Source of the DNA: Acutalibacteraceae bacterium
GTDB lineage: Bacteria > Bacillota > Clostridia > Oscillospirales > Acutalibacteraceae
Direction of reading: 5' to 3'
DNA: 64,000 nucleotides
Assembly: GCA_045631965.1 (NCBI GenBank)
Contig: JAZQVR010000010.1
Span: forward strand, 1-64,000
Shown: one piece after another, positions 17,737 to 33,238 of the stretch
Numbering within the stretch: position 1 is the stretch's first letter
Layout of the letters: every line of letters starts with the position of its first letter
Program-made: the position numbers and the translations under genes
The notes under the pieces: model-generated
What the model was told of the DNA's origin: nothing
The model's database searches: none
Seen by the model: only the letters and a program-made list of their open reading frames with translations

Positions 17737-17840
17737 TTCACCCATCCATTGAACACTTAGCATATATCAGCCCGACATTTTATCAACCGTATTACCAAAT
17801 ACGGCTATCTATTATGTTTGTGATGACAGAGGAGAAAAAT

Positions 17841-19586
17841 ATGAAAATCGGTATAGACTTCGGCAGTACATATTCAACTATATCCAAATACAACAGCATT
17901 ACTGATAATGTGGAAGCACTCACAGCTTCAGAAGGTGCGCCTGCCAGTATTCCTTCAGTGGTCAGCATTTCCAAAAAAGGTGTCATTACCTGCGGCCACG
18001 GTGCAAAGGAACAGGTCGGTAAAAAATCCGTTCGTGTTTACGAAGCTTTTAAAATGCTGCTTAACGAGCCCAATCAGGAAATGCTCTGCCGTCGAGGCTA
18101 TGACGACGAGTACACTCCTCGCCACATTACCAAAACTTTTCTTGAATCCACATTACACGGCATAATGCAGCGCGAAAGCCGCGACAGCATCGAAAACATC
18201 GTTATTTGTGTCCCCGAAATATGGGGCAACAAGCTGAACACTCTTGACGGCCGTGCGATTTTACGCAACGTGCTCAAGCAGGAAATTGATATCCCGGTAA
18301 ACAACATTCAGGTTGTAACAGAGCCGGAAGCAGCCAGTGCTTTTATCGCTTACAACTACGAAAAAGAAACACAAAAGAATTTTAACGGCCACCTGTTGCT
18401 TATCGACTACGGCGGAGGCACATTGGACCTCACCCTTACCTGCGTAACATCCCAAGGTCAGGGTACTATGGAAATCGGCTACCGTGAAGGCGGCGGCGCA
18501 GGCGAAAACCATCCCAATAACCGCGGCAGCGGCGACATCGGCAAAGCCGGCATAGCATTTATGCAGGGCGTCGTACTGCGTGCATTACAGGATGAGGATT
18601 TATTAACCGACAACGATACCGTAGATTATACCGACCCGGAATTTGTCGCAGCCGTAAAAGATCTTGAAAGCCAGATGAAAAGTGCTGAACGAATCAAAGA
18701 CATCGAAGATGTTTTCGAAGAATTCGGCAGCTACCGTAATATAAAGAAAATTTTAGATGACGATCCCATTGATTTCATTTCATTGGAATATGACGGTGAG
18801 GAAGTAAGCGTCACTTACCAACATCTTTTCCGTGCATACAACGAAATTGTTGAGCCTGTTTTGTTTGAAGAAGTAAGCAAAATCAACCAGCTCGTTGAGC
18901 AACATATCGGTGAGGATCCCTGTCAGCCTGCCGCCGGTGTGCGTGACGATTTCAAAATCGCACTGGTTGGCGGTTTCAGTTCCTTCTATCTCGTTAAAAA
19001 GCAAATCGCAGAGATATACAATATTGACCCCAACTCTACCATCGACCTGCGAGTCAAGAACGTTTCTGCCGACAAGCAGGAGCAGGCTATATCGCTCGGT
19101 GCTGCATTATTGGCAGCAGGCAAGGTCGTTCTGCAGAAAACAGCACGCTACTCTATCGGAATTTACGCTTCCGGTTCCGACGGCCGCAAGAGACTGTTTT
19201 ACGGCATCAGATATCATCAGGCAGTCGACACAGGCAAGCCGTACTTCCTTTGCTTCAATGACGAAAACTCCGATGACCCTGCCAACCGTGTTACCTACGG
19301 TGCACTGCACGGAAACATCAAAACCTTCGCCATCGAGTTTACCGACCGTAAAAACCACGGCGGCCTTATGAACCTGAAGCCTGAAATGCTGGAACGCTTG
19401 CAGCGTCTGCCCGAAGAAGGTTTCTGGAATCTCGGCTTTTCTATGGACGAAAGCGATGTTATCTCGTTCCATATCGTGCCCAGACCCTTACCGGGAATAA
19501 GCACTACAGAAGAATCTATTGTAATTCCTTTAGACAGTTATTCAAAAATGTTTGATTTGACCGATGTAAAAGAGGTGACGACATAA
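17841..19586 (+). CDS. Hsp70-like (ASKHA superfamily) ATPase, nucleotide-binding domain only, with ~200-aa C-terminal extension; non-canonical DnaK paralog
   Basis: Phosphate-1 IGIDFGSTYST, phosphate-2 LLIDYGGGTLDLTL and adenosine-like IALVGGFSSFYLV motifs in Hsp70 order. No substrate-binding beta-sandwich domain. Start is taken at ATG 17841, which has the RBS GAGGAG. The upstream extension of the ORF overlaps the DUF1294 gene and was rejected. Confidence 0.7.
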   Translation: MKIGIDFGSTYSTISKYNSITDNVEALTASEGAPASIPSVVSISKKGVITCGHGAKEQVGKKSVRVYEAFKMLLNEPNQEMLCRRGYDDEYTPRHITKTFLESTLHGIMQRESRDSIENIVICVPEIWGNKLNTLDGRAILRNVLKQEIDIPVNNIQVVTEPEAASAFIAYNYEKETQKNFNGHLLLIDYGGGTLDLTLTCVTSQGQGTMEIGYREGGGAGENHPNNRGSGDIGKAGIAFMQGVVLRALQDEDLLTDNDTVDYTDPEFVAAVKDLESQMKSAERIKDIEDVFEEFGSYRNIKKILDDDPIDFISLEYDGEEVSVTYQHLFRAYNEIVEPVLFEEVSKINQLVEQHIGEDPCQPAAGVRDDFKIALVGGFSSFYLVKKQIAEIYNIDPNSTIDLRVKNVSADKQEQAISLGAALLAAGKVVLQKTARYSIGIYASGSDGRKRLFYGIRYHQAVDTGKPYFLCFNDENSDDPANRVTYGALHGNIKTFAIEFTDRKNHGGLMNLKPEMLERLQRLPEEGFWNLGFSMDESDVISFHIVPRPLPGISTTEESIVIPLDSYSKMFDLTDVKEVTT

Positions 19587-21419
19587 ATGAAATTCAATCG
19601 TTTACAGGCCTCTATCTCAAATAATGCCGACCAATCGCCGTCGCTTTATATGGCTCTTTGTGCGATAGAATCTTTGTTTGCCGATTTAGAAGAAAGCTAC
19701 GGTTCAGATATCAACCTTTGTCCGGTCGGCGATGAGCGCCTTCCTTCCAAGCTTGTATGGTTGTGCCGCGTTATCAATGAAATCTACCGCGACAATAGCG
19801 ACGAGCTTCAGCGTAACCGCAGCCGTCTTGATATGGCTATGGAAAAGCTGAAAGAAACTCAAAAAGAGCTTGAAAAATCTGCCGCTGTTTGTGAAGAGCT
19901 GGCGAAACTGAATTCAGAATATGCCGTATTACAGCAGAAGCTGGAGAGCAACGGTGCTGCGGCTGCAGAATACGAAAAAATTTCTGCCAAGTGCCGTCAG
20001 GCAAAGCAGACGTTGGAGCAGCTCGGCACTTTTGATTTTGTTGCAGCGGAAAATGAATTAAAGCAGCTGACTGCTGACATCGCTTTGAAAGAAGGCGAAA
20101 AGTCTGCATTATTAACCAAACTCAATCAAACCCGTGAGTGTGCAGATGAGCTTGAGCAAGAAGTTGACGAATTAAAGACTAAAGAACAGGATTTACGCAA
20201 TCAGCTTTCAGCTTTGCAAGGAAAAAAGAGCTCAATCGGCGAAGGAAACGAAAGCCTGCTCGATGAGATTGACAGGCTGACAACCAAGCTCGCCTCTTCT
20301 CAGGATGAATTAAGCGACCTGGTCGCAAAACGCGATGACATCCAGAACAACATACTTATACTTCAGGGAAAAATCGCAGAATTCCGCGACGAAAGCCTGA
20401 CAGCTAAGCACGCAGAGTTGGAAGCTGTAAAAGAAGAAGCAGAGCAGCTTGAGGACGAACTTAACGCATTTGAACAGGATTGCTGCAAAATAAAAGATAA
20501 GCGAAATCAGCTTCTTATAGATATCGCTCACAAAAAAGCCGAAAACGAATCATTAAACGAAAAGTTTGCAGACACTCAGCAGAAACGAGATAATCTTGAA
20601 AAAGAAAAGCTTTGTTTATCGGCAACTTTATCTGACAGTGTGCAGAAGCTCGAATCGCTTCAGACTGAGGTTGACGAGCTTAATCAGAAAAAGCTCCCCG
20701 AAGTCTGGGAACTTCAGACGCAGGAGCAGTGTCGCAAGACAGAATTAGAGCAAAAAGTAACTGAAGCAGAAAATCAGTTGATTGTTCTTCAGGAAGAAAT
20801 TGCAAAACTCAACGACCGTCTTCCGAAGCTTGAAGAAGAAGTAGAAAACAACCGTGTAGTCTATAAAGCTCTTGCCGCAAGCTGTGCAGTCAGCTCCGGC
20901 GAGCTTGAAAGCCTTGAAAAGCAGATTGAAGAGCTTCGCAACAATACGGATGAACAGAAGCTTGTGGTTTATCGCAAGCAGCTGGAAGAAAAGCAGCAGG
21001 AGCTGGAAAACATTCAGCTTGAGTGTGAACGGATGAAGCAAGAAACTGCAGATCAAGGAATAAAACTCGAACAGTTACAAGAAGAAAGAGCAAGACTGCG
21101 CGACCTTAAAAACCGCCACGAACAAGGTGTAATGGTTACGGAAAAGCAGCTTCGTGAGCTTGAAACCGTTGTCAACGAGGAATACATACATGAAGTAATC
21201 TCGGCAGAAGAACGCATCAAGCTTCTGGAAAATGTACGCAGCAAATTATCCGCCTCCATCACAAATATGCAAAAAATCTTAGGCAAAGCTCCTGTTCAGG
21301 AACCGATTTCATTGGAAGACCAACTGAAATTTGAGTTACGTGAGCTTCGAATCAGAACCGATGATTTGCGTTGTTCTCTTGTAGAATGTGCTCACAGCCT
21401 TAAATTGGAGGAACGCTAA
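19587..21419 (+). CDS. Large coiled-coil protein (610 aa; ~90-aa N-terminal globular region then ~500 aa SMC-like heptad repeats)
   Basis: Continuous E/K/L/Q-rich heptad sequence. Its start codon abuts the Hsp70-like stop (TAAATG), which suggests translational coupling. Confidence 0.55.
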   Translation: MKFNRLQASISNNADQSPSLYMALCAIESLFADLEESYGSDINLCPVGDERLPSKLVWLCRVINEIYRDNSDELQRNRSRLDMAMEKLKETQKELEKSAAVCEELAKLNSEYAVLQQKLESNGAAAAEYEKISAKCRQAKQTLEQLGTFDFVAAENELKQLTADIALKEGEKSALLTKLNQTRECADELEQEVDELKTKEQDLRNQLSALQGKKSSIGEGNESLLDEIDRLTTKLASSQDELSDLVAKRDDIQNNILILQGKIAEFRDESLTAKHAELEAVKEEAEQLEDELNAFEQDCCKIKDKRNQLLIDIAHKKAENESLNEKFADTQQKRDNLEKEKLCLSATLSDSVQKLESLQTEVDELNQKKLPEVWELQTQEQCRKTELEQKVTEAENQLIVLQEEIAKLNDRLPKLEEEVENNRVVYKALAASCAVSSGELESLEKQIEELRNNTDEQKLVVYRKQLEEKQQELENIQLECERMKQETADQGIKLEQLQEERARLRDLKNRHEQGVMVTEKQLRELETVVNEEYIHEVISAEERIKLLENVRSKLSASITNMQKILGKAPVQEPISLEDQLKFELRELRIRTDDLRCSLVECAHSLKLEER

Positions 21420-21917
21420 ATGAAATGCCTTGTTTGCGGCAAAGATTTCGATTCATCCGAATGTCCCAGATGCCATTTCCCTGATGTTCAGCTTATAGGT
21501 GATCGTGAAGAAGCATTAAAAAAAATGCTGCCCACAATCAACCAATACAGAAAAAATTTTGCCGATGCGGTAAAGCTCTCCCTTATCACCTACCGCTGGA
21601 AAGATCAGGACGGTTATCTGGTGCTCAACAATAAAGATGTGACACCCATAGGTACGGCAGAAGAGTTGATGAAATCAGAAAAATGGCTGGAAACCAAATT
21701 TGCCCGTATTGCCGACAGCGACAAGATTACGGTTACTGTCTGCATCGAAATGGGTGACGATAAAAAGAACGTTGAAATCTCCGTTCCCAATTTAATGAAA
21801 GCGGAGTTGCAACAGTTGGGTGCCCGTGTTGACGACAGCTTCAACCTCAGCTTGATGTTGCGTAACAACACCGAAAAGCCCACAATATCCCAACCGGTCG
21901 ATTTATTTGCCGGTTAA
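21420..21917 (+). CDS. Zn-ribbon protein (165 aa)
   Basis: N-terminal CLVCGKDFDSSECPRCH ribbon. Its start abuts the upstream stop (TAAATG). Confidence 0.5.
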   Translation: MKCLVCGKDFDSSECPRCHFPDVQLIGDREEALKKMLPTINQYRKNFADAVKLSLITYRWKDQDGYLVLNNKDVTPIGTAEELMKSEKWLETKFARIADSDKITVTVCIEMGDDKKNVEISVPNLMKAELQQLGARVDDSFNLSLMLRNNTEKPTISQPVDLFAG

Positions 21918-21949
21918 CGGTTGTAAAACGACAGAAAGGAGCGTGAGCC

Positions 21950-23608
21950 GTGTTTTCATCCAAAGATTTGATATCGTTTGTCTTTGCCAACGAAAACGAT
22001 ACATATTATGGCGATGATTTACTGAAAAGAGATTTAAATCAATATTTGTGGGAACGGCTCCACGAAAACTACGAATCGGTTTACTTTCTGAGTGCTGAAG
22101 ACGACAGCTTCCGTGTACGTTCATACGGTGATCTGAGATGTAATGAATACACGCCGAAAAAGAAAAAAATATTCGGTTTGCTGGGCAGCAGTTCAGACCA
22201 AAGCGATCTGGGCAACTGGATTCAGCGGCAACTGTGTGCAAAATCGGATTCCACGGCAGCTTTTGTCTGCTCTCTTGATGATTTTTGTTCGGTTTTATCC
22301 GACCCGAAATGGTATCCGACACTTGAAAGTATTGCCGAAGATAAAAAGCGTACAGGTATTTTTGTGCTGACCGCTTCCGCTACGGCAGAGAAATCAGCCA
22401 ATATGTTATTGACAAGCCCCGTATTCGAAAAGCTTCACGAAACCGCAATTACGGATTTGCGTGACGGTGCCCCAAGAGATTTATACGGCACACTCAAAAA
22501 ACGCAAGTGGGACAATTGTATTTTCCTCAACAGCTTCACCTGGGAACGTGTTCACGATTTGTTGCTGCATCTGGTTGTCGAGTATCCCGACCGTTACGAA
22601 AGCTGCGAAAAGCTGGATACGATGTCGGAATATCTGTACACATATTTGCGTGACCCGGATTTTGCCCGTGAAGAGTTTTTGTTCGCAGAAGAATACGGCT
22701 TCGGATATCCGATGTACGAAGAGCTGTTTACCCGACTCAAAAATGAGCGCAACTGGAAAAATTTCGAAAAAAAAGTTGCTGCTTTTGAAAAGAGTGAAAG
22801 GAAACGTCAATGCACGGACTTATCGCCAAACGACGTTGCCGTGTTGCGTTCCCCGAACTCTTATGCGGGAAGATGTATGATAATCCGGTTACCCGACTGG
22901 CTCAACGATAACCCGCAGGAAGCAGAAAAGGCTCAGGCTACGCTTCAGAGTATATATTCCGAAGTTATTGCACCCAAGAGCAAGGTGGAAAATCCGGAAA
23001 TTATATCCTTTGCCGAAAAGCTGATCAACCGCCTCGATACGGTTGCAGTCGGCGATGCAGAATCTTACAATTTTGTATTGAGCACTTTGAAATTCTGCGT
23101 CGACCACATTTATTCACCGCATAACGATGAAAAAACTGCCGGCATTTTGTCAATCCTCCAAAAGAAGCAAGATGCCATCGGAATTTTCGATCAGCATTTT
23201 ATGACGCAAAGAAATTTAAAATTAATGCAGATATCTGTAAACGAAGGATCGATTCAAAGCATTACGCTTCAACAGCTGAATGCAAATTTCTATATTTTGG
23301 ATCAGGCAAAGAAAAAATTTGTAGATTTAATAGACTCTATGGAGCTTAATTTGGAAATGTCTGCAAAGTCATCATCTATCTCCGAGGTTCTGGAGACTCT
23401 TACGCTTGAAATTAAAAATATCGAAAAAAATCTCGCCGACATTCCGAAAAACAAACCGTTATCGGATGTTGCAGTAATCGAGCCGTTGACGCCTATGCCC
23501 GAACCCGAACCCGAAATATATCCCGAGCCAGAACCACCTGAAAAAGAGCAAGAGGATATATTTGTAATAACAGATGAAGATCGCAACTTCATTCCCCCTA
23601 TCAGATAA
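21950..23608 (+). CDS. Hypothetical protein (552 aa) with acidic Pro/Glu-rich C-terminal tail
   Basis: GTG start with the RBS AAAGGAG. No recognisable catalytic motifs. C-terminal PMPEPEPEIYPEPEPPEKEQED followed by a short hydrophobic terminal motif. Confidence 0.45.
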   Translation: MFSSKDLISFVFANENDTYYGDDLLKRDLNQYLWERLHENYESVYFLSAEDDSFRVRSYGDLRCNEYTPKKKKIFGLLGSSSDQSDLGNWIQRQLCAKSDSTAAFVCSLDDFCSVLSDPKWYPTLESIAEDKKRTGIFVLTASATAEKSANMLLTSPVFEKLHETAITDLRDGAPRDLYGTLKKRKWDNCIFLNSFTWERVHDLLLHLVVEYPDRYESCEKLDTMSEYLYTYLRDPDFAREEFLFAEEYGFGYPMYEELFTRLKNERNWKNFEKKVAAFEKSERKRQCTDLSPNDVAVLRSPNSYAGRCMIIRLPDWLNDNPQEAEKAQATLQSIYSEVIAPKSKVENPEIISFAEKLINRLDTVAVGDAESYNFVLSTLKFCVDHIYSPHNDEKTAGILSILQKKQDAIGIFDQHFMTQRNLKLMQISVNEGSIQSITLQQLNANFYILDQAKKKFVDLIDSMELNLEMSAKSSSISEVLETLTLEIKNIEKNLADIPKNKPLSDVAVIEPLTPMPEPEPEIYPEPEPPEKEQEDIFVITDEDRNFIPPIR

Positions 23609-23699
23609 TTGTAAAAAACAGATTCTATCTGTTAATAAATTATAATCAAAAATTATGCAGCTTTGCTGTGCGGGGTGTTACCCCGGAAAGGAGAAATAT

Positions 23700-24992
23700 A
23701 TGCCAAAACCTAATCGTCAGAACCAAACAAAAGCCGGCGGAGGTCGTTCCTCTAACCCCTTCATCAACTGGTTGGAAAATCGTAAGGAGCGTCGTCGCCA
23801 GGCAGAGGATGAGGCTGCCCGACTGATTACCAACAAAATAGCCGAGAATGAAAACATCATTGTCGACAAGCTCAGTTCTATCGACTTTTACAACAGCAGA
23901 TTACCTAAGGCAGTATTGGATGCCAAATCAAGAGAGGAACAGCCCTGCGGTGACCTTGAATATGCTGCTCGCGGTATTATCAATATGCTTCGCAAGAATC
24001 CCCAGACCATAAAGATGGACATCCGCAAGTTTGACCAGAAGTTATTGACATTGGTACTTCTCTTCAAGCAGACTGTTGAACAGGGCGATGTACGTGCTGC
24101 TTATGCTGCAAAAGGCGCTATCGTACGAGCTATCGCAGATATCCGCTGCCGTATTCCTCAGGATCAGCCCGAACTGGCAACAATGTTCGTAGAAGCTAAC
24201 TCAAAGTATCTTGATCAGTGGATTACTTTGGTATTATTGGCACAGGTTGCTGACCGCACCAAGCAGAACGCTGATACACACAGAGCAAGATTCGAACAGG
24301 CACTCAATCGCCATGAAGAGGATGTTGCTGAATTCCATAAGCGTATCCGTGAGGATGATGCTTTGCTTCTTGCTTTCCAGAAGCTTGTAGACCATACCTC
24401 AACCCAGAATCGTACCGAATGGGATAAAAATGAGCGCGATGTTCACCGTCTGATGGTTGAACGCCGTATGGAAAAAGCAAATCTTGATATAAACAACATT
24501 CTCTTGCAGCAATCCGAAATGGATCTGAGCGCCAAGGAAATGCAGGTAGAAATGCTTTATTCCAAGGTTGCAGCATTACCTATAGTTACCGACCCCGACC
24601 TGATGAGCAAATATCAGGAAAGCATCGACGAGCTGTTCAAGCAGTTGGCTGAAAGCGATGCACAGATTGATGAAACTCTCAAATCAATGGATGAAATTGA
24701 AGGTAATATCCAGCAGTTGAATGTCGCACCCGGCGCTGCACGTGCTATGGAAATAGCTGCCGAACAAGCTGAAAAAGTTCTTGCAGAAATCACCAAGCTG
24801 CAAAACGACCAAGCAGGCAAAAATACTCTTCACGCAAAGAAAATGCGTGAAGCACTGGGCATTCTTACCGAAGAGCAGCTTGCTGAGCAGAAGCGTCAGG
24901 CTGACCTTGAAGTACAGCGTGCCGCAGAAATTATGAGAGAACAGATGGAAGTGCAAGAACAAGAGCAAGAGCAGGAAATGCTGATAAACTGA
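23700..24992 (+). CDS. Hypothetical all-alpha-helical protein (431 aa), basic N-terminal region and acidic Glu/Gln-rich C-terminus
   Basis: Start at ATG 23700, which has the RBS GGAAAGGAG. The sequence is helix-prone throughout and ends MREQMEVQEQEQEQEMLIN. Confidence 0.45.
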   Translation: MPKPNRQNQTKAGGGRSSNPFINWLENRKERRRQAEDEAARLITNKIAENENIIVDKLSSIDFYNSRLPKAVLDAKSREEQPCGDLEYAARGIINMLRKNPQTIKMDIRKFDQKLLTLVLLFKQTVEQGDVRAAYAAKGAIVRAIADIRCRIPQDQPELATMFVEANSKYLDQWITLVLLAQVADRTKQNADTHRARFEQALNRHEEDVAEFHKRIREDDALLLAFQKLVDHTSTQNRTEWDKNERDVHRLMVERRMEKANLDINNILLQQSEMDLSAKEMQVEMLYSKVAALPIVTDPDLMSKYQESIDELFKQLAESDAQIDETLKSMDEIEGNIQQLNVAPGAARAMEIAAEQAEKVLAEITKLQNDQAGKNTLHAKKMREALGILTEEQLAEQKRQADLEVQRAAEIMREQMEVQEQEQEQEMLIN

Positions 24993-25029
24993 TACAGTTT
25001 TGTATTGTCTAATGAAAGGAGAGTCCCAT

Positions 25030-25764
25030 ATGGCGATTATCGATACAATCCACGAAACAAAAAACACCCTTGAAGAACTCAAGAGAAAATACAAATTCAG
25101 AAAAGCACGTATGGCACACAAAGATGCCGTTGAGCTTCAGGTTACATTAGCAAAGTGCAGAGGTAAGCTCGAAATCTGCAAAAACGATTTTAACCGTACA
25201 ATCAAAACCCAAAGCAGAAACATCAACGCCGGCAAAAAAATCGGCGCAGATACTCTCATTCAGGAGCAGATTCTTTGGGATGCCGCACTCGGCTATATGC
25301 TGGTACGTGATGCAATCTTTTCACTTGAAACAATCAATTCCTATGATTCCGTTTCACACGCATACGAAATGCTCGATGCTGCAGTAAAACAGATGTCCGG
25401 CAAAAAGAGCATTTTCCCCGTAGCAAAGCCCGGCTCTGCTAAAGAGCGTAACGCTTACGGCTACATAAATTCCTCTGCTGCACAGAAAGAAAAAGAGGAG
25501 CTGTTAGACGGATTTTTCGAGGCGCTGAAGCTTGACGGTGATATTGAAGCTCACCTTGCCAGCGCACGTATTCCCGGCGCAACCAACGCAGAGTTACGCC
25601 GTGCATATGTAGATGATAAGCTTTCTGACGGCGAGTTAGATTCTGACCTTGACGATTATATGGCTCGCCTCAATGCCGTTGACGATGCCGCAACACCCGC
25701 CGCAAACTTTGACCAGAATATGGATACCCTTATGGATATCCATCCGCCCAAAGATTCACTGTAA
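25030..25764 (+). CDS. Hypothetical helical protein (245 aa), basic N-terminal half and acidic C-terminal half; candidate ESCRT-III/PspA-superfamily-like protein with a MIM-like C-terminal helix
   Basis: The N-terminus MAIIDTI...KRKYKFRKARMAHK is basic. The C-terminus SDGELDSDLDDYMARLNAVDD is an acidic amphipathic segment resembling MIT-interacting motifs. Length and charge asymmetry are typical of ESCRT-III/PspA family members. This is inference only. Confidence 0.4.
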   Translation: MAIIDTIHETKNTLEELKRKYKFRKARMAHKDAVELQVTLAKCRGKLEICKNDFNRTIKTQSRNINAGKKIGADTLIQEQILWDAALGYMLVRDAIFSLETINSYDSVSHAYEMLDAAVKQMSGKKSIFPVAKPGSAKERNAYGYINSSAAQKEKEELLDGFFEALKLDGDIEAHLASARIPGATNAELRRAYVDDKLSDGELDSDLDDYMARLNAVDDAATPAANFDQNMDTLMDIHPPKDSL

Positions 25765-25779
25765 GAAGGAGATATTACT

Positions 25780-27165
25780 ATGGCATGGGATAACAGATAC
25801 GACATCAGCGGTACCGGCTATACACAATTAATGGATGAAAAAACCACGCGTTACACTAACCTTGTACGCAAGGCTGAACAGATTAACCGTGATCATGAAG
25901 GCAAGCCCACAAAGGAAGAGGCAAGCTATTATTATGAGGCTGCAAAAATCTGCGAAGAGATTATGAATATGAATCTTAAGCTCAGAGCAATTTACGAGCA
26001 GTGGAAATATCGCAAAACAGATTGTGAAGACAGAATAAGACAGATTACCAACATCCTCGCACCCAAGCCCGTTGCTCCCGAGCGTGAGCCTGTCGCTGGG
26101 CGCAACACTCAGAGAAATTCCGATTCTGACAAGCAGGCTGCAGATTCAAAAGCTCCTACTACCAGCAAGTCCGGCTTCACTACCGAATTTGCATCCAAAG
26201 AAGTTCCTGTAGAAATGATTGAAAAGTGGTTCAAGGATGTTTCCGACAAGGGCTTTGAATATGTTGTCGGCAGAACTGAATTGAAAGAACGCCTTATGAA
26301 TGAGGCTGCAGGCTTCGGTTGGGATAAGGTTGACTCCGCATTGGATATCAACCCTGTTCAGTGCTATTTCCTCTACGGCCCTCCCGGTACAGGTAAGACA
26401 CACCTCATCAAGGCTTTTGCTGCCGAGCTCAAGAAGAAGGGCTTCAACTTTATGCAGTTGACAGGCAGCGATATCCACAACAGCTATGTTGGCGTAGCAG
26501 AAAAAATCGTTGCTGCAGCTTTCAACGTTGCAACAGAAAAAGAGCCCTGCCTTATCTTTATCGATGAGATTGATAACCTCTGTGTCAGCAGAGACGGCAA
26601 GGCAGAAGGCCACGAGCAGCGTCTTACGGTTTCATTCCTTGAGGCATACAATAAGTTTAAAGAATCAGGCAAGCGCGTAATTTTCATCGGCGCTACCAAC
26701 CATCCCGGTAAAGTTGACGAAGCTATGCTTGACCGTGTAAGCCTCATCAAAATTCCGTTACCCGAAGCAGAGGACAGAATCGGTTATTTCGACAGAATGA
26801 TCAACGGAGTCGGCGAAAACAAGGGTATGGTTAAACTTACTCTCGAAGAAGGCTTCACATTCGAAGAAATGGCTGACGCTACAGATAACCACAGCTATCG
26901 TGACCTCGACCGTTTGAAGAACTCAATGCTCACCAAGCTCAAGAGTCAGGCTATTGCCGAGTATACTGTGCTTGATGAGGACGGTAAGGTAGACCAGCAG
27001 GCTACCGATGCAAAGGCAAGTGAAGCTATCATCAGCGGTGAGATTATGCTTACCCGCGAGCTCTTCGCACAAACCCAGAAAGAAAATCTGCCCAGTGACA
27101 AGACAAAGAGCCGTCAGGAGCTCAAAGAATTTGAAGAGCGTGTTTCGGCTATTGCAAATGAGTAA
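25780..27165 (+). CDS. AAA+ ATPase of the Vps4/katanin/spastin ('meiotic') clade with a putative N-terminal MIT-like three-helix domain and an S/T/K/P-rich linker
   Basis: Walker A YGPPGTGKTH and Walker B LIFIDEIDNLCVSR closely match Vps4 IIFIDEIDSLCGSR. The sensor-1 and second-region-of-homology segment IFIGATNHPGKVDEAMLDRVSLIKIPLPE matches Vps4 [30 protein letters not shown]. Residues ~20-95 (TTRYTNLVRKAEQ...EEASYYYEAAKICEEIM...LRAIYEQWKYRK) are predicted as three helices reminiscent of MIT. Confidence 0.8.
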   Translation: MAWDNRYDISGTGYTQLMDEKTTRYTNLVRKAEQINRDHEGKPTKEEASYYYEAAKICEEIMNMNLKLRAIYEQWKYRKTDCEDRIRQITNILAPKPVAPEREPVAGRNTQRNSDSDKQAADSKAPTTSKSGFTTEFASKEVPVEMIEKWFKDVSDKGFEYVVGRTELKERLMNEAAGFGWDKVDSALDINPVQCYFLYGPPGTGKTHLIKAFAAELKKKGFNFMQLTGSDIHNSYVGVAEKIVAAAFNVATEKEPCLIFIDEIDNLCVSRDGKAEGHEQRLTVSFLEAYNKFKESGKRVIFIGATNHPGKVDEAMLDRVSLIKIPLPEAEDRIGYFDRMINGVGENKGMVKLTLEEGFTFEEMADATDNHSYRDLDRLKNSMLTKLKSQAIAEYTVLDEDGKVDQQATDAKASEAIISGEIMLTRELFAQTQKENLPSDKTKSRQELKEFEERVSAIANE

Positions 27166-27209
27166 AAATTCAAGTTCACCCAAAATGCTGCTGAAAAGGA
27201 GTGTGTGAT

Positions 27210-28220
27210 ATGGAAAAAGAAATTCAAGCTTGGCTCAAAGGCATCTGTGACGTTTCTCAATTCAGGCTGGAATATTGGAAAGCCCGTGAATTAGACGACC
27301 CGGATGGCTGGGGAAGCCTTTTAGCACCTTCTTTTCAGGACGGCGACTCCGTCAGCGGCAGCGGTATTCTTTTAACCGGCGGCGACAGTCACAGTAAGAT
27401 ATCTTTTGCCATGCAGGTGTTGAATCTGCTCAAGCCCGAAGCATACGATGGAGTGTTCATTAGCGGAACAGACTTGGGTGCTGACGGTTTTGCACAAACT
27501 CTGAAGAAATTGAATAGCCTGTTCGACTATTTCAACAACAAAGGAATGGGCTTATGCCTTATTCTCGATGACTTGGATGAGTATGCTTACAGACGAAATC
27601 TTCTGCAGTTTTTAGGTCATAAGCTTTGCGAGTACAATATGTACGGCGGAGAGCTTGCTCCTTTGTTTTTGCTCATTATGGATGAACACGAGCAAGATAT
27701 TCCCGCTTTGCTCAGAGATTGCTTACAGCTTTGCCGTTTGCAGTTGCCTAACAAAGCCAAGCGCAGCGTCTATCTTGAGATTCACGCCAAATCATTGCGA
27801 AACTACCTCTCGCTTGAAGTATTTGCTCAGGCGACGGAGGGTGCAAGCTATGTACAGCTGCTGGATATGATTACTTTGGCAGAGAATTATATCGACAGTC
27901 TCGACGGACGCGGTATATCCGACGATGAGCTGAAAGCGTTTCTGGCAGACCAGATGCCGAATTGCACATCGGACAATCCGTTGAATGAAATCAATAAATC
28001 TATACAGCAGATGATTGAGCAACTCAAGAATTTGCCTGTCGGTGGCGGCGGAGGACCATATACACCACATAAACCAATTGACCCGAAGCCTCCGTTAACG
28101 AATGACAATCGCGTAACTCGTGAGGATATTGAGAATATGCCTCCGAAGCAGCTTGCTACAGAGCTTTTTGGAGAAGATCGTGTAAAAGAGTTACTGCAAC
28201 CTGCTGTTATTACGCAGTAA
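27210..28220 (+). CDS. Degenerate AAA+-like protein (predicted inactive pseudo-ATPase paralog)
   Basis: The AAA-like order of motifs is kept but catalytic residues are lost: the Walker A position is GILLTGGDSHSKIS (no GKT), the Walker B-like position is LCLILDDLDEY, and the C-terminal end is LQLPNKAKR (compare IPLPE). Start at ATG 27210, 9 nt after the RBS AAAGGAG. Confidence 0.45.
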   Translation: MEKEIQAWLKGICDVSQFRLEYWKARELDDPDGWGSLLAPSFQDGDSVSGSGILLTGGDSHSKISFAMQVLNLLKPEAYDGVFISGTDLGADGFAQTLKKLNSLFDYFNNKGMGLCLILDDLDEYAYRRNLLQFLGHKLCEYNMYGGELAPLFLLIMDEHEQDIPALLRDCLQLCRLQLPNKAKRSVYLEIHAKSLRNYLSLEVFAQATEGASYVQLLDMITLAENYIDSLDGRGISDDELKAFLADQMPNCTSDNPLNEINKSIQQMIEQLKNLPVGGGGGPYTPHKPIDPKPPLTNDNRVTREDIENMPPKQLATELFGEDRVKELLQPAVITQ

Positions 28221-28227: not shown

Positions 28228-28262
28228 CAAAAATCCGGAACAGATGTTCCGGATTTTTTATT
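28228..28262. terminator. Bidirectional rho-independent terminator between converging operons
   Basis: atccggaacagatgttccggat hairpin flanked by an A-run 5' and TTTTTTATTT 3', between the stops at 28220 (+) and 28276 (-). Confidence 0.65.
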
Positions 28263-28275: not shown

Positions 28276-28893
28276 TTACCTGGCTGTTTTTTTGTTTTTA
28301 TTAGCGGAATAAGTATTGAGCTTTGCACCGCAGTTGCAACAATACTGGCTGTTAGGGCTGTTGTTTGTATTGCAGACACTGCATATCCGTGCAGTCTTAA
28401 CATACGGATTGGGGCGACTCGGAGCTTTAGGTCTCTTGTCGTATGCAGGTTCCTTCGGCTCGGTATGCTGCCGCTCATTGAAACTGCCGGATATGTTAAT
28501 AAATTGTTGCTTATCAAAACGGCCGGATTTTGCACTGCTCAGAATTTTTTCAACAGCAGACAGCACATTATCATCCCACTGCTGATTTTTTATCAAAGCA
28601 AGCGTTTGCTCTACGGATGGCTCCGGTGGAGGATTCCACAGTATTTTAAACAGTGAAACCGCAGGTGTACGAGACTTAATTACCTGCAGAGTAGGATACA
28701 GCTCGTAATTACGGCTGTTATCAAAACCGCATTTTTCGCAAAGAGGTGTTCTGTTCTGCGTTCCGCAAACAGTGCAGATATGTGAGCATTTACCTTTTGC
28801 GTTTACTGAAGCTGCTTTGTCGGCAGACTTATTTGGGGTACTATTGGATAAACTGTTACCAACAGTAAAATAATCGTTGTTTTTGCTGTTCAT
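28276..28893 (-). CDS. Double Zn-ribbon protein (205 aa)
   Basis: Two CxxC...CxxCG ribbons (CTVCGTQNRTPLCEKCG; CSVCNTNNSPNSQYCCNCG) separated by a ~110-aa domain. Confidence 0.5.
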   Translation of the reverse strand: MNSKNNDYFTVGNSLSNSTPNKSADKAASVNAKGKCSHICTVCGTQNRTPLCEKCGFDNSRNYELYPTLQVIKSRTPAVSLFKILWNPPPEPSVEQTLALIKNQQWDDNVLSAVEKILSSAKSGRFDKQQFINISGSFNERQHTEPKEPAYDKRPKAPSRPNPYVKTARICSVCNTNNSPNSQYCCNCGAKLNTYSANKNKKTAR

Positions 28894-28958
28894 TGTATAT
28901 ACGCCTCAATCGAGATGAATTTAATTTTTGCAGCTGCAGTTTCGTGCAGCCAAACAAA

Positions 28959-29939
28959 TCAAAGGTCACCGGGACGGAAGAAAGGATTTTCTCTTGTCGT
29001 GGATTCGTTGATAACAGGCGGCTTGTATGTAGTCTCTGCAACAGGTGGTGCTACATAATCAACCTTCGGAATTTCAGGCTCTGTGCCGCGTAATTTATGA
29101 AATACCTCAACGGCTGTAGGTCTTTTTTGCGGGTCACCGTCTACCATAGATTCAATCAGCGTTGCTATATCGCCGGGCAGTCTGCTCGATATAATCAGCT
29201 TTTCGCCCTTTGCAACGGCTTCGCCGGAGTAAGAATTTTCTATAGTGTTGTATCTCGGAAGCTCGCCCGTAAAATACTGATGAAAAAGAACACCCAATGC
29301 AAAAATATCCATTTTGCAGGTAAGCTCCACGCTTTCGCCCCAGATGTTTTTACAAGCCTCGGGTGAGAAATAATGGAAATCGCCTATGATTGCTTCGCCG
29401 GGTGCAGGCGGATTTGATTCCAAAAAGCTGCTGTCAAAATCGATAACCTTTGCCGTCACACGACCCGATGAGCTTTTGGTGAAAAGAATATTATCGGGTT
29501 TCAAATCGGCATGTATCAGCTTCATTTTGTGAAGACCTGCAATAGCGTGAGTAATAATCGCACACAGCCTTTTGATTTCACTAAGCGGAAGCTTTGCAAT
29601 ATCGGCAACATCCATATTAATCGCGTTAATCTTCTGCATAGCGATATAGTATTTGGATTCAATGCGGAAAAACTCTTCTATGCGAACGGCATTACCGTCT
29701 GAAGAAAGGTTTACCGCCTGATAGATTTTCTTTTTATCCTGCTCAAACAGCTGACATTCTCTGATCTTCTTTTTTAAACGTTCAGGACTGGAAACCGTAT
29801 CATTAAAAGGATATTTACGCTCAACAAACTGTTTGATGAAATATTCTTTTCCGCCCTTATTAGCAAAGCCCCAGATAGAGTAGCCGGCATTTTGGTTTGT
29901 AAAAGAACTTGTTATTTCATATTTACCCAGTTGTTCCAT
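28959..29939 (-). CDS. Ser/Thr protein kinase (Hanks-type), third member of the TerY-P-like triad
   Basis: Catalytic loop IHADLKPDNILF, activation segment VIDFDSS (DFD in place of DFG), lysine-containing FIKQF strand. The start ATG overlaps the PP2C stop (TAATG). Confidence 0.7.
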   Translation of the reverse strand: MEQLGKYEITSSFTNQNAGYSIWGFANKGGKEYFIKQFVERKYPFNDTVSSPERLKKKIRECQLFEQDKKKIYQAVNLSSDGNAVRIEEFFRIESKYYIAMQKINAINMDVADIAKLPLSEIKRLCAIITHAIAGLHKMKLIHADLKPDNILFTKSSSGRVTAKVIDFDSSFLESNPPAPGEAIIGDFHYFSPEACKNIWGESVELTCKMDIFALGVLFHQYFTGELPRYNTIENSYSGEAVAKGEKLIISSRLPGDIATLIESMVDGDPQKRPTAVEVFHKLRGTEPEIPKVDYVAPPVAETTYKPPVINESTTRENPFFRPGDL

Positions 29940-30910
29940 TATGCCTGTCCGTCCTTTATATGCCTCATATAATTATCACGATATGACTCCCAGAGTGAAA
30001 TGCGGCCGTCTTTGTCTTCGGGCGGCATTTTTGATATGGGAGCAAGATATTGCTTTTCAAGGTAAGCATATCGGTTAGCAAAAGCCTGCTGAAGTGCAGC
30101 AAATTTTCCGTAACCGTAAGATGCAAGGCAAATGGTGCTGTCATCGCCTGCAATTGAGCTTATCAGCTCAGCCAGTTTATTTTCCCACTGGTCTGCGCTT
30201 TTGGTTTGTAAAAGCGTGTTAAGCAGTATACCCTCAAACTCCATAGGTGTAGACAAATAGCCGAAGCAGCCGTCTGTTGCCGCAAAAACAACAAAAGGCT
30301 CAGTCATTCTGATGGTTTTGTGGTGGAGCTTTGCAGGCTTGTTACTGCACAGTATATTCTGAAGCACACCGTCTTCATAAGTATTAAGCATCGGGTCGGG
30401 CACATTGGTATCGTCTACCGTAAGCTGTGCGAGGCCCTTGGAGTTCATAATATAAACTCTTGAGTCTCCTGCCCAGATAGCACTTACAAGCATCTCGCCC
30501 TTCTTTGCCTGCCTGATCAGAGCAACCGCTGCTGTACTGGGCAAAGTACGGACACTGGAGCCTTTAATCTGAAATCCGCCGCCATCAACAGGAGGAACAA
30601 ACTGCATAAGGCGTTGAGTAATCTGCGGCGCAAAAACATCGGCAATCAGGTCAGCAACCTTAAGCTGACTCGGAAAAGTGCGGCGGAACTGATCATAGAA
30701 AACGCCGGCACAGAAACGCGATGCCATATATGCCTCGGTATGACCGGAGTAAAAATCGTGCTTTCTGGCACCTGCACCACCGCATCCGTCAAATGCGCCC
30801 AGAAGACCTGCTGCATCGCAAAAGCTGTAGCAGTAGCTGTCCTCACCGTGTCCGGGAATCTTATCACGGCAAAAAGACATTACAAAATCAAGAGACAGAT
30901 TATGCTGCAT
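29939..30910 (-). CDS. PP2C-family Ser/Thr protein phosphatase
   Basis: PP2C metal-binding motifs GAFDGCGGAGA, WAGDSRVYIM and VFAATDGCFGYL in canonical order. Confidence 0.7.
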   Translation of the reverse strand: MQHNLSLDFVMSFCRDKIPGHGEDSYCYSFCDAAGLLGAFDGCGGAGARKHDFYSGHTEAYMASRFCAGVFYDQFRRTFPSQLKVADLIADVFAPQITQRLMQFVPPVDGGGFQIKGSSVRTLPSTAAVALIRQAKKGEMLVSAIWAGDSRVYIMNSKGLAQLTVDDTNVPDPMLNTYEDGVLQNILCSNKPAKLHHKTIRMTEPFVVFAATDGCFGYLSTPMEFEGILLNTLLQTKSADQWENKLAELISSIAGDDSTICLASYGYGKFAALQQAFANRYAYLEKQYLAPISKMPPEDKDGRISLWESYRDNYMRHIKDGQA

Positions 30911-30996
30911 TGTACCAACCTCGAATCCAAAATAATGTTACTTATACAAGAGAACCGATGCGAAAAATCATCGGTTCCCGAAACTTCTTAAGTTAA

Positions 30997-31710
30997 TCAG
31001 ACAGAATTTGCGATAAGGTTAAGAATATCGTTGAAGTTCTTCTCTGCCAATCCGTTGCCGAGTGAAGACGGAATATGCCATGTCAGATCCCAGTTGTCGG
31101 ATATGTACTTCCAGTTATCGACATCGGGTGCAAAGAGAACAAGACGTCTTTCATTGGGTCTCATAAGGTTCGGGTCATCCCACCACTCGCTCAGCTCATT
31201 CATATCCTTCGGCATACCCTGGGGATAGAACTTGGACTTTTTGCCGAAGCCGAGATTGTGAGCACCTGCATCAGTCCAGACAACAATAACCTGACGCTTT
31301 TTAGCACCCTCTGTTGTCCACGGGGACTTGATAGCGTAAGCAAGCGCCTCAAGACCGTCCTCCGGGATGTCGCCTCCGCCGTCAGCGTGAATGCTGTTGA
31401 TGCAGGCTTCAAACTCTGCAGCCTGCTGCGGAAGGTGGAAGAAATCAGTTACCATCATAGCATACTGACCGTCTGCAATATAATCGCGGAAAGCGATAAC
31501 GCGAACGCGAAGCTGACGCACCTTCTTACCCTTTTCGGTCATAACGCGGTTGAAATCGTTGTAAAAGCTGATTGCATTCTGCTTTACCATATTGATAATT
31601 TTGTTCTGTGTGCCTGTGGTATCCTCCATGCTTCCTGTAGCATCGATGCAGAATACCATGTCTACCGTATAGTCCATTGACTGGCCGTAGCTGCCCTGAA
31701 ATCCTGACAT
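30997..31710 (-). CDS. von Willebrand factor A (vWA) domain protein of the TerY-like type
   Basis: MIDAS motif VFCIDATGSM, then ADGGGDIPEDGLEAL and WTDAGAH segments. Same order as TerY-family vWA proteins. Confidence 0.7.
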   Translation of the reverse strand: MSGFQGSYGQSMDYTVDMVFCIDATGSMEDTTGTQNKIINMVKQNAISFYNDFNRVMTEKGKKVRQLRVRVIAFRDYIADGQYAMMVTDFFHLPQQAAEFEACINSIHADGGGDIPEDGLEALAYAIKSPWTTEGAKKRQVIVVWTDAGAHNLGFGKKSKFYPQGMPKDMNELSEWWDDPNLMRPNERRLVLFAPDVDNWKYISDNWDLTWHIPSSLGNGLAEKNFNDILNLIANSV

Positions 31711-31864
31711 TTCTGTTTCCTCCTGCTTATATGTTGCAAATTATGATTAACCGTTAGCTTCAATAATTTTTTCAATAATTTTAATAAAATAATTAGGGAT
31801 TGATTCGTAGAAGAGCTCTTTGGTTACCCCACTATCTTTATAATAGATGGAATTTACTGTATTA

Positions 31865-32635
31865 TTATTTATTTCTATGATTAAGAGTTTTGTTTTTAAC
31901 CTCCCTGTTATCATTATAGTCAATTTTCACTTCACATATTTCTTTAGATGACCGGAGATCAAGCTCTTCATTACTACCCATATAAAATGATTTAAGCCAT
32001 TTGGTAATTTCCACCATATTTTCGTCAGGAACTTGATGTTGCTCTCCATTTAAAACAAAAGTAATCTTCTTAATATTTTCAAGATCATCGTCCGCAAAAA
32101 CTTTAGTGTCAGTTTCGGGCACATCGTTGGGGGGTGAGGGTGAGTTTTGTTTTGGGGGTGAGTTTGGTTCTTGGGTTTCTTTTGTGGTTGTGGGTTTCTT
32201 TTGTGTTTCTTTTTCTTCCTCTTTCTCTTCTTCGTCGTCAAATTCATATTTGTAGCCGGTAATGCCTGATTTTTCATTTACCTCTACTATATTTTGCTTT
32301 AACGTATCAAGCTCGTCGGAAAGCTTGCTTACTTTGCCGAAAAGCACAAATATAAGCACAAACAAAATGACAACAATAACCAGAACAAAGCCTGCCAAAG
32401 CTAACTTAATCGTCTTATTGTCGTCCGAATTATTCACCGGAGCAGGTGCTGCCGGACGCACGGGACGTTCGACAACATTGTTGGTACGAGCTGATGAAGC
32501 AGCCGCTGCTATGGATTCTTTGGATACGATATCATAAAAACCGCCGCAATCGGATAATGCGGGGACTTCCTTGCCGCAACGCTTACACTTTGTATCGGAA
32601 GGAGAAATTTTGTTGCCACACCATTTACAAATCAT
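31865..32635 (-). CDS. N-terminal Zn-ribbon, single-pass membrane protein with acidic low-complexity ectodomain
   Basis: CKWCGNKISPSDTKCKRCG ribbon, TM helix LALAGFVLVIVVILFVLIFVLF, then an E/K/T/P-rich region and a C-terminal globular segment. Confidence 0.5.
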   Translation of the reverse strand: MICKWCGNKISPSDTKCKRCGKEVPALSDCGGFYDIVSKESIAAAASSARTNNVVERPVRPAAPAPVNNSDDNKTIKLALAGFVLVIVVILFVLIFVLFGKVSKLSDELDTLKQNIVEVNEKSGITGYKYEFDDEEEKEEEKETQKKPTTTKETQEPNSPPKQNSPSPPNDVPETDTKVFADDDLENIKKITFVLNGEQHQVPDENMVEITKWLKSFYMGSNEELDLRSSKEICEVKIDYNDNREVKNKTLNHRNK

Positions 32636-32641
32636 TTTTCA

Positions 32642-32950
32642 CTACCTCTTTCTTGATGCAATATTCTCGCCGCAGATTGAGCACGTCGCGGCGTTGGGTT
32701 CGTTTTCACCGTCGCAAAACGGACAGCTGACGCTCATACGCTTCCCCGGAAAAACATAGATAACATTCGGAACAGGGGCGCTGCTGCGTACAGTTACCTT
32801 TGGCCTGTCGGCTGCGGCACCCGTACTTACGGGTTTGATGTCGCCCGATCCATCTGCCTTTTTCCGTTTCTTTTTTTTCTTGGAAACGCCGATTATTATT
32901 GCTATAACAACTACCGCTATCGCCGCATAAATAATTGGCTCTATCAACAC
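32642..32950 (-). CDS. Small TM protein with C-terminal Zn-ribbon (~100 aa)
   Basis: TM helix IIYAAIAVVVIAIIIGV, poly-Lys stop-transfer, C-terminal CPFCDGENEPNAATCSICG. The start is assigned to GTG 32950, which has the RBS AAAGAGG. Choice of start codon is uncertain. Confidence 0.4.
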   Translation of the reverse strand: MLIEPIIYAAIAVVVIAIIIGVSKKKKKRKKADGSGDIKPVSTGAAADRPKVTVRSSAPVPNVIYVFPGKRMSVSCPFCDGENEPNAATCSICGENIASRKR

Positions 32951-33238
32951 ACATACACCTCTTTGCAGGATTTGCTTTGAATTTTTTACCTTTTTATATA
33001 AATTTAAACATAATTTAAGATATTTTATCATAAAGCAAATTTGTTCGCAACATATTTATTCATAAATTCGATAAAAATTTACAAAATTTATGTATATATT
33101 CCGTATAAGTAAACGAAATTATTAATTACGCAAAACAAAGAACAAACCAACTGCGTCAGCATAAAAATATTTTATCAATTTACTTTAGCGACAAAGTATG
33201 ATATAATTTTCGCACGATGACATTTAAGGAGAATATGT

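Follow-up and report, generated by a model that had tools for sequence, protein, structure and literature searches.

The window analysed here is a stretch of 64,000 nucleotides from an Acutalibacteraceae bacterium (GenBank assembly GCA_045631965.1, contig JAZQVR010000010.1, positions 1 to 64,000), and the system under study occupies positions 28276-32950 of its minus strand, where translation of the open reading frames (ORFs) revealed six co-directional and closely spaced genes. In the order 5' to 3', these genes encode a transmembrane protein with a zinc ribbon, a protein made of a zinc ribbon, a transmembrane helix and an ectodomain, a von Willebrand factor A (vWA) protein, a phosphatase of the PP2C fold, a Hanks-type kinase and a soluble double zinc-ribbon protein. 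The original prediction, made from the sequence alone, had read the locus as a TerY-P-like triad; the TerY-P definition used here is that of PMC11090510 and PMC4978471, which cite Anantharaman, Iyer & Aravind (2012). We propose, with about even odds of being right, that the operon encodes a membrane-associated, self-contained Ser/Thr phospho-signalling module, which belongs as a clostridial branch to the vWA-PP2C-kinase ("TerY-P-like") theme. The features of the operon are the following.

33022-33050, minus strand: promoter-like site 5' of the first gene, TTGCGA-17-TAAAAT with a TG extension (weak evidence, from a consensus scan alone)
32642-32950, minus strand: small membrane protein with a transmembrane helix and a zinc ribbon (ORF; weak DZR and Zn_ribbon Pfam matches)
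31865-32635, minus strand: protein with a zinc ribbon, a transmembrane helix and an ectodomain (ORF; Zn_Ribbon_1, E=2e-4)
30997-31710, minus strand: stand-alone vWA protein of 237 residues (VWA_4 above cut-off)
29939-30910, minus strand: PP2C/PPM-fold phosphatase of 323 residues (family profile, AlphaFold2 model, Foldseek)
28959-29939, minus strand: soluble Hanks-type Ser/Thr kinase of 326 residues (Pkinase, 89 bits)
28276-28893, minus strand: soluble double zinc-ribbon protein (ORF; DZR, RanBP-type and Zn_Ribbon_1 matches, E 2e-4 to 9e-4)
28229-28258, no strand (bidirectional): intrinsic terminator (stem of 13 bp) that separates the triad operon from a convergent AAA+ operon

All six ORFs of the original prediction were present on the minus strand at the positions given above, including the two transmembrane zinc-ribbon proteins upstream and the soluble double-ribbon protein downstream of the triad, and each of the motifs quoted for them (CIDATGSMED, GAFDGCGGAGA, AGDSRVY, HADLKPDN and IDFDSS) was found in the translations. 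The TAATG overlap between stop and start codons was confirmed at 29939, where it joins the PP2C and kinase genes, in keeping with co-transcription and coupled translation of the triad. The longest ORF of the first gene extends to 33031; a GTG codon at 32950, preceded by the ribosome-binding site GAGGTG, is its probable start. The terminator that closes the triad operon is strong. The locus is a real six-gene operon combining a kinase, a phosphatase, an integrin-like vWA protein and membrane zinc-ribbon proteins. Profile searches recovered the three predicted domains unequally, as the vWA protein matched VWA_4 with 35.2 bits (cut-off 27) and the kinase matched Pkinase with 89 bits, the PP2C protein remaining short of its Pfam cut-off.

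Regarding the distribution of the system, the vWA family comprises 1,559 clusters at 50% identity, and relatives of the vWA protein were detected in 423 of 185,579 species-level genomes. The best 80 vWA loci belong to Clostridia throughout, bar one short contig of a metagenome-assembled genome (MAG) labelled Bacteroidaceae, and they include Oscillospiraceae, Lachnospiraceae, the cultured Blautia caecimuris, Faecalibacterium langellae and Oribacterium; the closest relatives are MAGs of gut Clostridia/Oscillospiraceae. When 86 loci were compared (four of them copies of one contig), PP2C relatives were found beside the vWA relative at 84 loci and kinase relatives at 85, so that the arrangement cannot be put down to chance. 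The genes follow the order vWA-PP2C-kinase at 59 loci and PP2C-kinase-vWA at 21; at 45 of 80 loci the ORFs of PP2C and kinase overlap. All-against-all clustering of the 10-kb flanks yielded no further recurrent gene family and a Pfam search of 132 flanking ORFs yielded none either (maximum 3 of 132), which indicates that the module is self-contained.

Distant members of the vWA family (42-45% identity) are carried by plasmids of Herpetosiphon and Calothrix. On the Herpetosiphon aurantiacus plasmid pHAU01 (our locus L005, Haur_5138-5140), a triad of the same family lies beside transposases and a resolvase, and on a mobilizable MobQ plasmid of Calothrix (L006) the order is vWA-kinase-PP2C, with a PP2C-like protein of 1,042 residues. 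Two separate copies of the module (L046 and L049) were found in one Lachnospiraceae MAG (CAMNQN01).

The kinase displays the hallmarks of the Hanks family, namely the β3 Lys, the αC Glu, HxDxxxxN, the metal-binding Asp, APE and the αF Asp. Its principal motifs map as follows.

29832-29834, minus strand: β3 Lys36
29490-29513, minus strand: catalytic loop HADLKPDN
29433-29441, minus strand: DFD
28962-28985, minus strand: C-terminal tail PFFRPGDL, which ends the protein

K36, D145, K147, D167, D169, E194 and D211 are invariant in 82 of 82 relatives, H143, N150, P193 and R273 are retained in 81, and the αC Glu (E66) is found in 67. The Arg of HRD is replaced by Ala, Gly or Ser among the relatives, which makes this a non-RD kinase, and the Gly-rich loop is atypical, with G19 as its only invariant residue. 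The Gly of DFG is swapped for an invariant Asp in all 82 relatives, so that DFD has to be regarded as a family signature rather than as a sign of decay. The low activity that the original prediction had suspected from the DFD and Gly-loop deviations is thus not borne out, K36, D145, K147, D167 and D169 being invariant in the 82 relatives; nor did the alignment uncover a loss of the catalytic Lys or Asp, which had been named as an observation that would speak against the triad. On the same conservation, the idea of a pseudokinase was rejected. Judged from its sequence, the kinase is active-looking and appears catalytically competent. Further kinases occur near some triads: at a locus whose system is 74% identical (L001, positions 7277-8992), a second stand-alone kinase of 316 residues and a TraX-family membrane protein precede two zinc-ribbon genes, and additional kinases account for 3 of the 132 flanking ORFs of other loci.

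The phosphatase is highly divergent, as its PP2C_2 Pfam score is only 17.5 bits, below the cut-off of 24. When a family profile built from 46 sequences was compared with the PDB, solely PP2C enzymes were retrieved at E<=0.02, PppA being the first (5e-5), followed by tPphA, Stp1 and PstP. The AlphaFold model (pLDDT 79.8, on the scale of the predicted local distance difference test) led to the same family, since the top 50 Foldseek matches were all PP2C/PPM enzymes, with a best E of 1e-12 and target-normalised TM-scores of up to 0.76. G22-E23-D24, D41-G42, G148-D149-S150-R151, D213-G214 and D256-D257 are invariant in the 46 sequences, and C-terminally of the core lies a helical extension of ~45 residues (about residues 270-314). 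The corresponding motifs are located as follows.

residues 22-24, minus strand: GED
30776-30793, minus strand: FDGCGG
30458-30469, minus strand: GDSR
30269-30277, minus strand: TDG
30140-30145, minus strand: DD

By profile and model, the protein is of the PP2C/PPM fold with a complete set of metal ligands, and its activity is predicted on this ground. Of about 2,030 relatives in the database, the best 120 include a single one with a Pfam domain, and those that have a name are all "hypothetical".

Regarding the vWA protein, the VWA_4 match was accompanied by a weak match to Integrin_beta. Its AlphaFold2 model reached a pLDDT of 90.4, and the top 50 Foldseek matches of this model were all integrin β subunits. 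Here again, the sequence profile pointed in the same direction, the PDB sequences retrieved with the family profile being nearly all integrins β-8, β-6, β-3 and β-1, although with a weak E of about 0.006. The stretches that line up are VDxxxxxDxSxSM, the GxxDxPExGx[DE]A loop and TDxxxH, and the DxPE-G-x-[DE]-A and TDxxxH motifs are shared with integrin β-8; identity to integrin β I domains amounts to 13-18%. The elements of the MIDAS (metal-ion-dependent adhesion site) and its surroundings map as follows.

31630-31644, minus strand: MIDAS D23-x-T25-x-S27
31342-31380, minus strand: GGGD-x-PE-x-G-x-E-A loop
31270-31272, minus strand: TD147A

None of the 84 relatives has lost any of the MIDAS-type residues D23, T/S25, S27, E117 and D147. 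The integrin β I domain is thus the best structural match, with a common MIDAS DxSxS, a D-x-P-E-G-G-x-D-A loop (which we take to hold the residues of the synergistic metal-binding site, SyMBS, and of the MIDAS in integrins) and TDxxxH. It differs in its setting, as the window protein is cytoplasmic, consists of 237 residues and has neither hybrid nor PSI domains nor an α subunit. Sequence and model together indicate that this is a cytoplasmic, stand-alone vWA protein of the integrin β-I type with an intact MIDAS. Integrin ligands offer an Asp to this site, in the form of RGD or, for β-6 and β-8, of RGDLxxL.

Two observations concern the vWA gene itself. Directly after the MIDAS DxTxS, at 31603-31629 (residues 28-36), the protein has a Thr-rich insertion, E-D-T-T-G-T-Q-N-K; of 47 diverse members of the family, 38-40 have gaps at positions 30-32, the confidence of the model is lower there, and the loop is a candidate phospho-acceptor beside the metal site. 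On the opposite strand, a 201-residue ORF runs antisense through the gene (31075-31680, plus strand) and has counterparts at about 30 related loci. This apparent family of 30 loci was rejected as an artefact of greedy ORF picking, and the ORF is most likely a by-product of codon composition and no gene.

The archetypal TerY-P system of plasmid R478 has the order TerY1-TerX-TerY2-TerY3(TerY-C)-PP2C-kinase and lies beside terW and terZABCDE. It has in common with the window an operon of vWA, PP2C and Ser/Thr kinase genes with overlapping stop and start codons, a non-RD D-x-D kinase (DVD at the DFG position in R478) associated in one form or another with a zinc ribbon and the character of a mobile, self-contained module; the two kinases align with E=1e-6. 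The differences are nevertheless substantial. The R478 kinase carries a zinc ribbon fused at its C-terminus, as do CoCoNuT-type kinases, whereas that of the window has neither a fused ribbon nor a fused β-rich domain (four of its relatives do have a fused ribbon), ends in a Gly-Asp-Leu (GDL) tail of a type that the R478 kinase does not have, and is accompanied by obligatory membrane zinc-ribbon proteins. The R478 PP2C is a protein of 545 residues that scores 156 bits on PP2C_2, compared to 323 residues and 17.5 bits for the window protein. Finally, the window system has an integrin β-I type vWA protein and is without a TerY-C domain, ter genes and DNA-processing partners.

The original prediction had named a vWA protein that does not cluster with TerY-type domains as an observation against it, and this is the part that did not hold. 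BLASTP detected no similarity between the window vWA and TerY2 or TerY3 of R478 (E=15 and 2.7), and PF00092, which recognises TerY1-3 with 48-56 bits, failed on the window protein (18.6 bits), its matches being VWA_4 and Integrin_beta instead and its nearest structures integrin β I domains. An hhalign comparison with TerY gave a probability of 83% over 111 columns at 17% identity, a level that reflects generic vWA homology. It should be noted that the TerY reference consists of three sequences from one plasmid and that the contrast with the window vWA is drawn from sequence and Pfam. The domain triad, the operon coupling and the zinc-ribbon partners of the predicted TerY-P triad thus stand, and membership of the vWA protein in the TerY clade falls: shared architecture with a non-TerY vWA protein places the module within the TerY-P-like theme and outside the TerY clade. 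The TerY-P reading of the original prediction is in this sense partly supported: the module would work like a TerY-P triad, while forming a distinct, undescribed branch.

The same comparison bears on a canonical TerY-P function, in which the module would confer resistance to tellurite or metal stress as in ter clusters. The three domain types, operon coupling, D-x-D kinase and zinc-ribbon association shared with the ter-linked triad of R478 would fit such a function. However, no TerZ, TerA-F, TerD or TerC gene was found in the examined parts of the window or in the flanks of 80 loci, the vWA protein is non-TerY by BLASTP, Pfam and structure, TerY-C is missing and the PP2C diverges in length and score. 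This explanation is largely refuted; we consider it extremely improbable and essentially excluded. More broadly, ter genes, DNA-processing or restriction genes and WXG/FtsK secretion genes were absent from the window genes examined and from the flanks of ~80 loci.

By contrast with these missing partners of TerY-P, membrane-anchored zinc-ribbon proteins are encountered almost everywhere. The set of loci surveyed for them numbered 81 (Clostridia apart from two plasmid loci, plus the window itself), and a membrane-anchored zinc-ribbon protein was encoded on the same strand within 3 kb of the triad at 79 of them. Neighbourhood statistics confirmed this association, which the original prediction had proposed to examine: 125 ORFs of the ribbon-first type and 71 of the helix-first type (196 in total) were counted in 447 kb near the triad, versus 17 and 10 (27 in total) in 701 kb farther away, both strands included. 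Membrane zinc-ribbon proteins are therefore nearly obligatory partners of the triad. The ribbons and associated elements of the three window proteins are located as follows.

32672-32725, minus strand: ribbon of the helix-first protein
32576-32629, minus strand: N-terminal ribbon of the ribbon-first protein
32525-32563, minus strand: conserved P-x-L-S-D-C-G-G-F-Y-D-[IL]-V of the ribbon-first protein
32339-32404, minus strand: transmembrane helix of the ribbon-first protein
28729-28776 and 28327-28383, minus strand: the two ribbons of the double zinc-ribbon protein, with an uncharacterised domain of ~110 residues in between

The helix-first protein consists of an N-terminal transmembrane helix, a polybasic stretch, a linker, an "[IL]Y" motif and a C-terminal CPxCDGEN...CxxCG ribbon, and this architecture, with the common motif TIYxF...CPxCDGEN, recurs on the same strand at 56 of 81 loci. 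In the ribbon-first protein the helix is followed by a charged, Pro-rich spacer and a small C-terminal extracellular domain; its tblastn relatives adjoin the triad at 58 of 86 loci, and the nearly invariant SDCGGFY-type motif (P-x-L-S-D-C-G-G-F-Y-D-L-V-P) was found at 25 loci, in each case within the gene that directly precedes the triad. The double zinc-ribbon protein (28276-28893) is poorly conserved and begins with NDYFTVGNSL at its N-terminus, a sequence with a loose resemblance to the tail motif of the kinases; zinc-ribbon proteins downstream of the kinase are nonetheless common across loci, where such paralogues are many and variable. All ribbons are predicted to be cytoplasmic, on the strength of the positive-inside rule and of the kind of domains found at the C-termini. 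The extracellular parts of the membrane zinc-ribbon proteins vary and, in the downstream paralogues, include PASTA repeats, subtilase domains, BspA-type leucine-rich repeats (LRR_5) and WG repeats, a zinc-ribbon-transmembrane-PASTA protein adjoining the triad in one relative. These membrane proteins look like interchangeable receptors or surface proteins with a common cytoplasmic handle. The ectodomains (PASTA, LRR, subtilase, WG) make regulation at the envelope or surface the most likely field of action of the module.

The kinases are further distinguished by their C-termini. Tails such as PFFRPGDL, WFSSAGDL and FFSAAGDL are conserved at the very end of each protein, preceded by ~40 variable residues, and follow the pattern aromatic-aromatic-x-x-G-D-L, which also terminates many accessory zinc-ribbon proteins. 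Of 82 kinases, 55 have G[DN]L in their last 5 residues and 64 have a broader tail motif, the chance expectation for GDL tails being, by our own estimate, far below one. This tail is also found at the end of 10 small soluble zinc-ribbon proteins beside the triad as well as of several ribbon-first membrane proteins and some longer multi-ribbon proteins, and the Herpetosiphon kinase keeps ...MDL at its C-terminus. Kinase, zinc ribbon and tail are united in one protein at four loci (L023, L026, L027 and L029). Fusions also involve the vWA family: P0156 joins a DFD-type kinase of the window family to a vWA domain of the same family and is without the tail, P0217 joins a canonical HRD/DFG kinase through a long disordered linker to such a vWA domain, and P0157 joins a SMEK_N domain to it.

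Taken together, these observations are compatible with the following scheme. The membrane zinc-ribbon proteins would act as interchangeable receptors or clients, to which the soluble kinase, having no sensor domain of its own, would be recruited. The integrin-like vWA protein would serve as the assembly hub by capturing the aromatic-aromatic-x-x-G-D-L tail of the kinase and of accessory zinc-ribbon proteins, and the Asp of the tail and/or its terminal carboxylate might ligate the MIDAS metal, by analogy with the binding of RGD by integrin β. The PP2C protein would reset the switch by reversing phosphorylation. More specifically, the module may be a split receptor-kinase in which the vWA protein reads a C-terminal Gly-Asp-Leu peptide through its metal site, as a bacterial counterpart of the Asp-ligand recognition of integrins; we put this forward tentatively and hold it to be rather doubtful. 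The adaptor is possibly an evolutionary relative of integrin recognition that is used intracellularly.

Several points weigh against this scheme. The MIDAS is intact in 84 of 84 relatives, which leaves no variation to set against the presence of the tail, and equally good candidates for the receptor of the GDL tail are the PP2C protein, with the helical extension at its C-terminus, and the kinase. About one fifth of the kinases have merely a relaxed tail, and the downstream zinc-ribbon protein of the window does not carry the GDL tail. No conserved effector domain was detected in the module across loci. Finally, nearly all loci come from MAGs, and their ORFs were delineated by a simple script.

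The absence of an effector also bears on a role in anti-phage defence of the TerY-P type. Under this explanation, an infection-activated kinase, perhaps sensing through the membrane zinc-ribbon proteins, would abort infection by phosphorylating host or phage proteins, the PP2C and vWA proteins holding it off in the meantime. It has been reported that TerY-P-like triads provide defence on their own (Gao et al. 2020, cited in PMC11090510), and the window kinase matches the defence-kinase models mad6 (1e-27), MkoA and PD-T4-6 of PADLOC-DB v2; these matches, however, amount to generic Hanks-domain similarity. The vWA and PP2C proteins match no PADLOC model even at E<=10, a result that says nothing in either direction, since TerY1-3 and the PP2C of R478 match none either. 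The genomic contexts are variable, same-family triads reside on the Herpetosiphon and Calothrix plasmids, integrases flank 3 of 132 sampled positions and one MAG holds two copies of the module, all of which would suit a defence system. On the other hand, the flanks are occupied mainly by housekeeping and transport genes without recurrent restriction or defence families, no nuclease, pore or other effector was found, no relative of the module was detected in IMG/VR, and the PASTA, LRR and subtilase ectodomains resemble envelope and surface biology. We therefore regard a defence function as unlikely, although deserving of more credit than the stress-resistance function discussed above.

One sequence deposited as viral contains the triad. 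GenBank entry MT836186 ("UNVERIFIED: Bacteriophage sp.", human faeces; L088) has a PP2C-kinase-vWA triad in the Lachnospiraceae-type order with a vWA protein 56% identical to that of the window. The phage carriage suggested by this tblastn match was rejected, as the IMG/VR viral contigs contain no relative of the module, and the entry is treated as probably representing bacterial DNA from a virome.

The triad operon converges on a neighbouring operon at a common terminator, and this arrangement, already seen in the original prediction, raises another explanation, namely that the triad is the regulatory arm of the adjacent operon, which runs from an Hsp70-like protein to a Vps4/CdvC-like AAA+ ATPase, both forming a joint system of membrane remodelling or repair. 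The neighbouring operon (17637-28220, plus strand) comprises eight genes, encoding an Hsp70-like protein of 649 residues (weak HSP70 match), proteins of 610, 165, 552, 445 and 254 residues without Pfam match, a classic AAA+ ATPase of 461 residues, whose top NCBIfam matches, CDC48, PAN and CdvC, are all far under cut-off, and a 339-residue protein without family match. Four homologues of this operon, in conserved order, lie directly upstream of and co-directional with the zinc-ribbon genes and the triad at one other locus (L086, vWA 52% identical), namely the Hsp70-like protein, the 165-residue protein, the AAA+ ATPase (1.5e-64) and another AAA-like protein. Also encoded nearby (15367-16731) is a protein that combines an SPFH domain with four zinc ribbons. 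Against a joint system, adjacency of the triad and the AAA+ gene was found at only 2 of 81 loci, and closer relatives (60-80% identity) do not have it within 10 kb; in a metagenome scan the AAA+ family was rare, with 4 loci on contigs too short for judgement. The convergence predicted for the window is thus confirmed and a general partnership is not: the two loci concerned are only 52% identical and differently arranged, which makes the AAA+ link noteworthy but not general, and we consider a joint system improbable.

In contrast to such a joint system, the phospho-signalling module proposed here finds its closest parallels among other kinase-phosphatase assemblies. The triads of Gao et al. 2020, with a kinase-OB fold protein, and of the CoCoNuT systems of types II and III-A, with a kinase-zinc ribbon protein, are described in PMC11090510 as containing the same triad, and the CoCoNuT-type arrangement, in which the ribbon is tied to the kinase, is also that of the four window relatives with a fusion. 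As compared by description, the window loci differ from these systems in having no McrBC/CoCoNuT genes, other restriction genes or OB fold nearby. The actinobacterial GAP1-N2 GTPase-centric systems contain sets of kinase(-zinc ribbon), PP2C and stand-alone vWA proteins (Kaur et al. 2020, PMC7159879) and share with our module the three proteins, zinc ribbons and transmembrane segments; they too are predicted to act close to the membrane, and their partner proteins bear extracellular domains of PASTA-like, SH3 or PEGA type. They differ by their GTPases, as no DO-GTPase or GAP1 gene was found in the flanks of 81 loci, and by their occurrence in Actinobacteria rather than Clostridia. In Sulfolobus, ArnA, with a zinc ribbon and an FHA domain, binds the vWA protein ArnB under the control of kinases and phosphatases (ArnC/ArnD, PP2A; PMC6509490, PMC12852372), which sets a precedent for the zinc ribbon-vWA contacts proposed here. 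This archaeal pair differs from the window system in that ArnB has additional β-sandwich and helical domains, the phosphatase is PP2A and not PP2C, phosphorylation is read by the FHA domain, and membrane anchors and the GDL tail are missing.

PASTA receptor kinases (PknB/PrkC/Stk1) with their PP2C enzymes (Stp/PstP), and PpkA/PppA/Fha1 of type VI secretion, likewise pair a Hanks kinase with a PP2C in envelope processes, and the PDB sequence that the window PP2C family matches best is PppA of type VI secretion. PpkA, too, unites kinase and vWA domains. In the window, by contrast, receptor and kinase are separate polypeptides, no FHA protein is present, and the vWA protein is cytoplasmic and stand-alone. 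What is new here is the combination of an integrin-β-I-like vWA protein, a near-unannotated PP2C family and a DFD kinase with a GDL tail, as well as the membrane zinc-ribbon partners with variable ectodomains, the tail at the C-terminus and the kinase-vWA fusions.

The remainder of the window was examined in part. A Tad/Flp pilus locus (2595-12835, minus strand) encodes TadE/G-like proteins, two T2SSF proteins (TadB/C), T2SSE (TadA), a ParA-like TadZ, RcpC/CpaB and a prepilin peptidase, and is followed by a regulator with a LuxR-type helix-turn-helix (13326-14564). The SPFH protein mentioned above (15367-16731, minus strand) has a Band_7_1 domain (184 bits) and four C-terminal zinc ribbons, and is likely membrane-associated. 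At higher coordinates beyond the triad, the window contains genes for a putative lipoprotein, a hydrolase of the HAD type, an enzyme of the LCP (LytR_cpsA_psr) type, membrane proteins and a protein with BspA-type LRRs. The parts examined revealed neither restriction nor CRISPR nor transposase genes. The context of the window is one of envelope and surface biology.

Triads of vWA, PP2C and kinase are widespread, with reported links to stress responses and to defence against phages, and the MIDAS, the tail, the fusions and the membrane partners described here provide testable handles on the role of the vWA protein in such triads. With the assignment of the PP2C-like component, a family of ~2,000 sequence clusters listed as hypothetical proteins acquires a fold and a probable activity, and the association with the triad offers a functional context for the zinc-ribbon-transmembrane proteins that are very common in Firmicutes. 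As the module is present in abundant and culturable gut genera, Blautia, Faecalibacterium and Oribacterium, experiments on its function are feasible.

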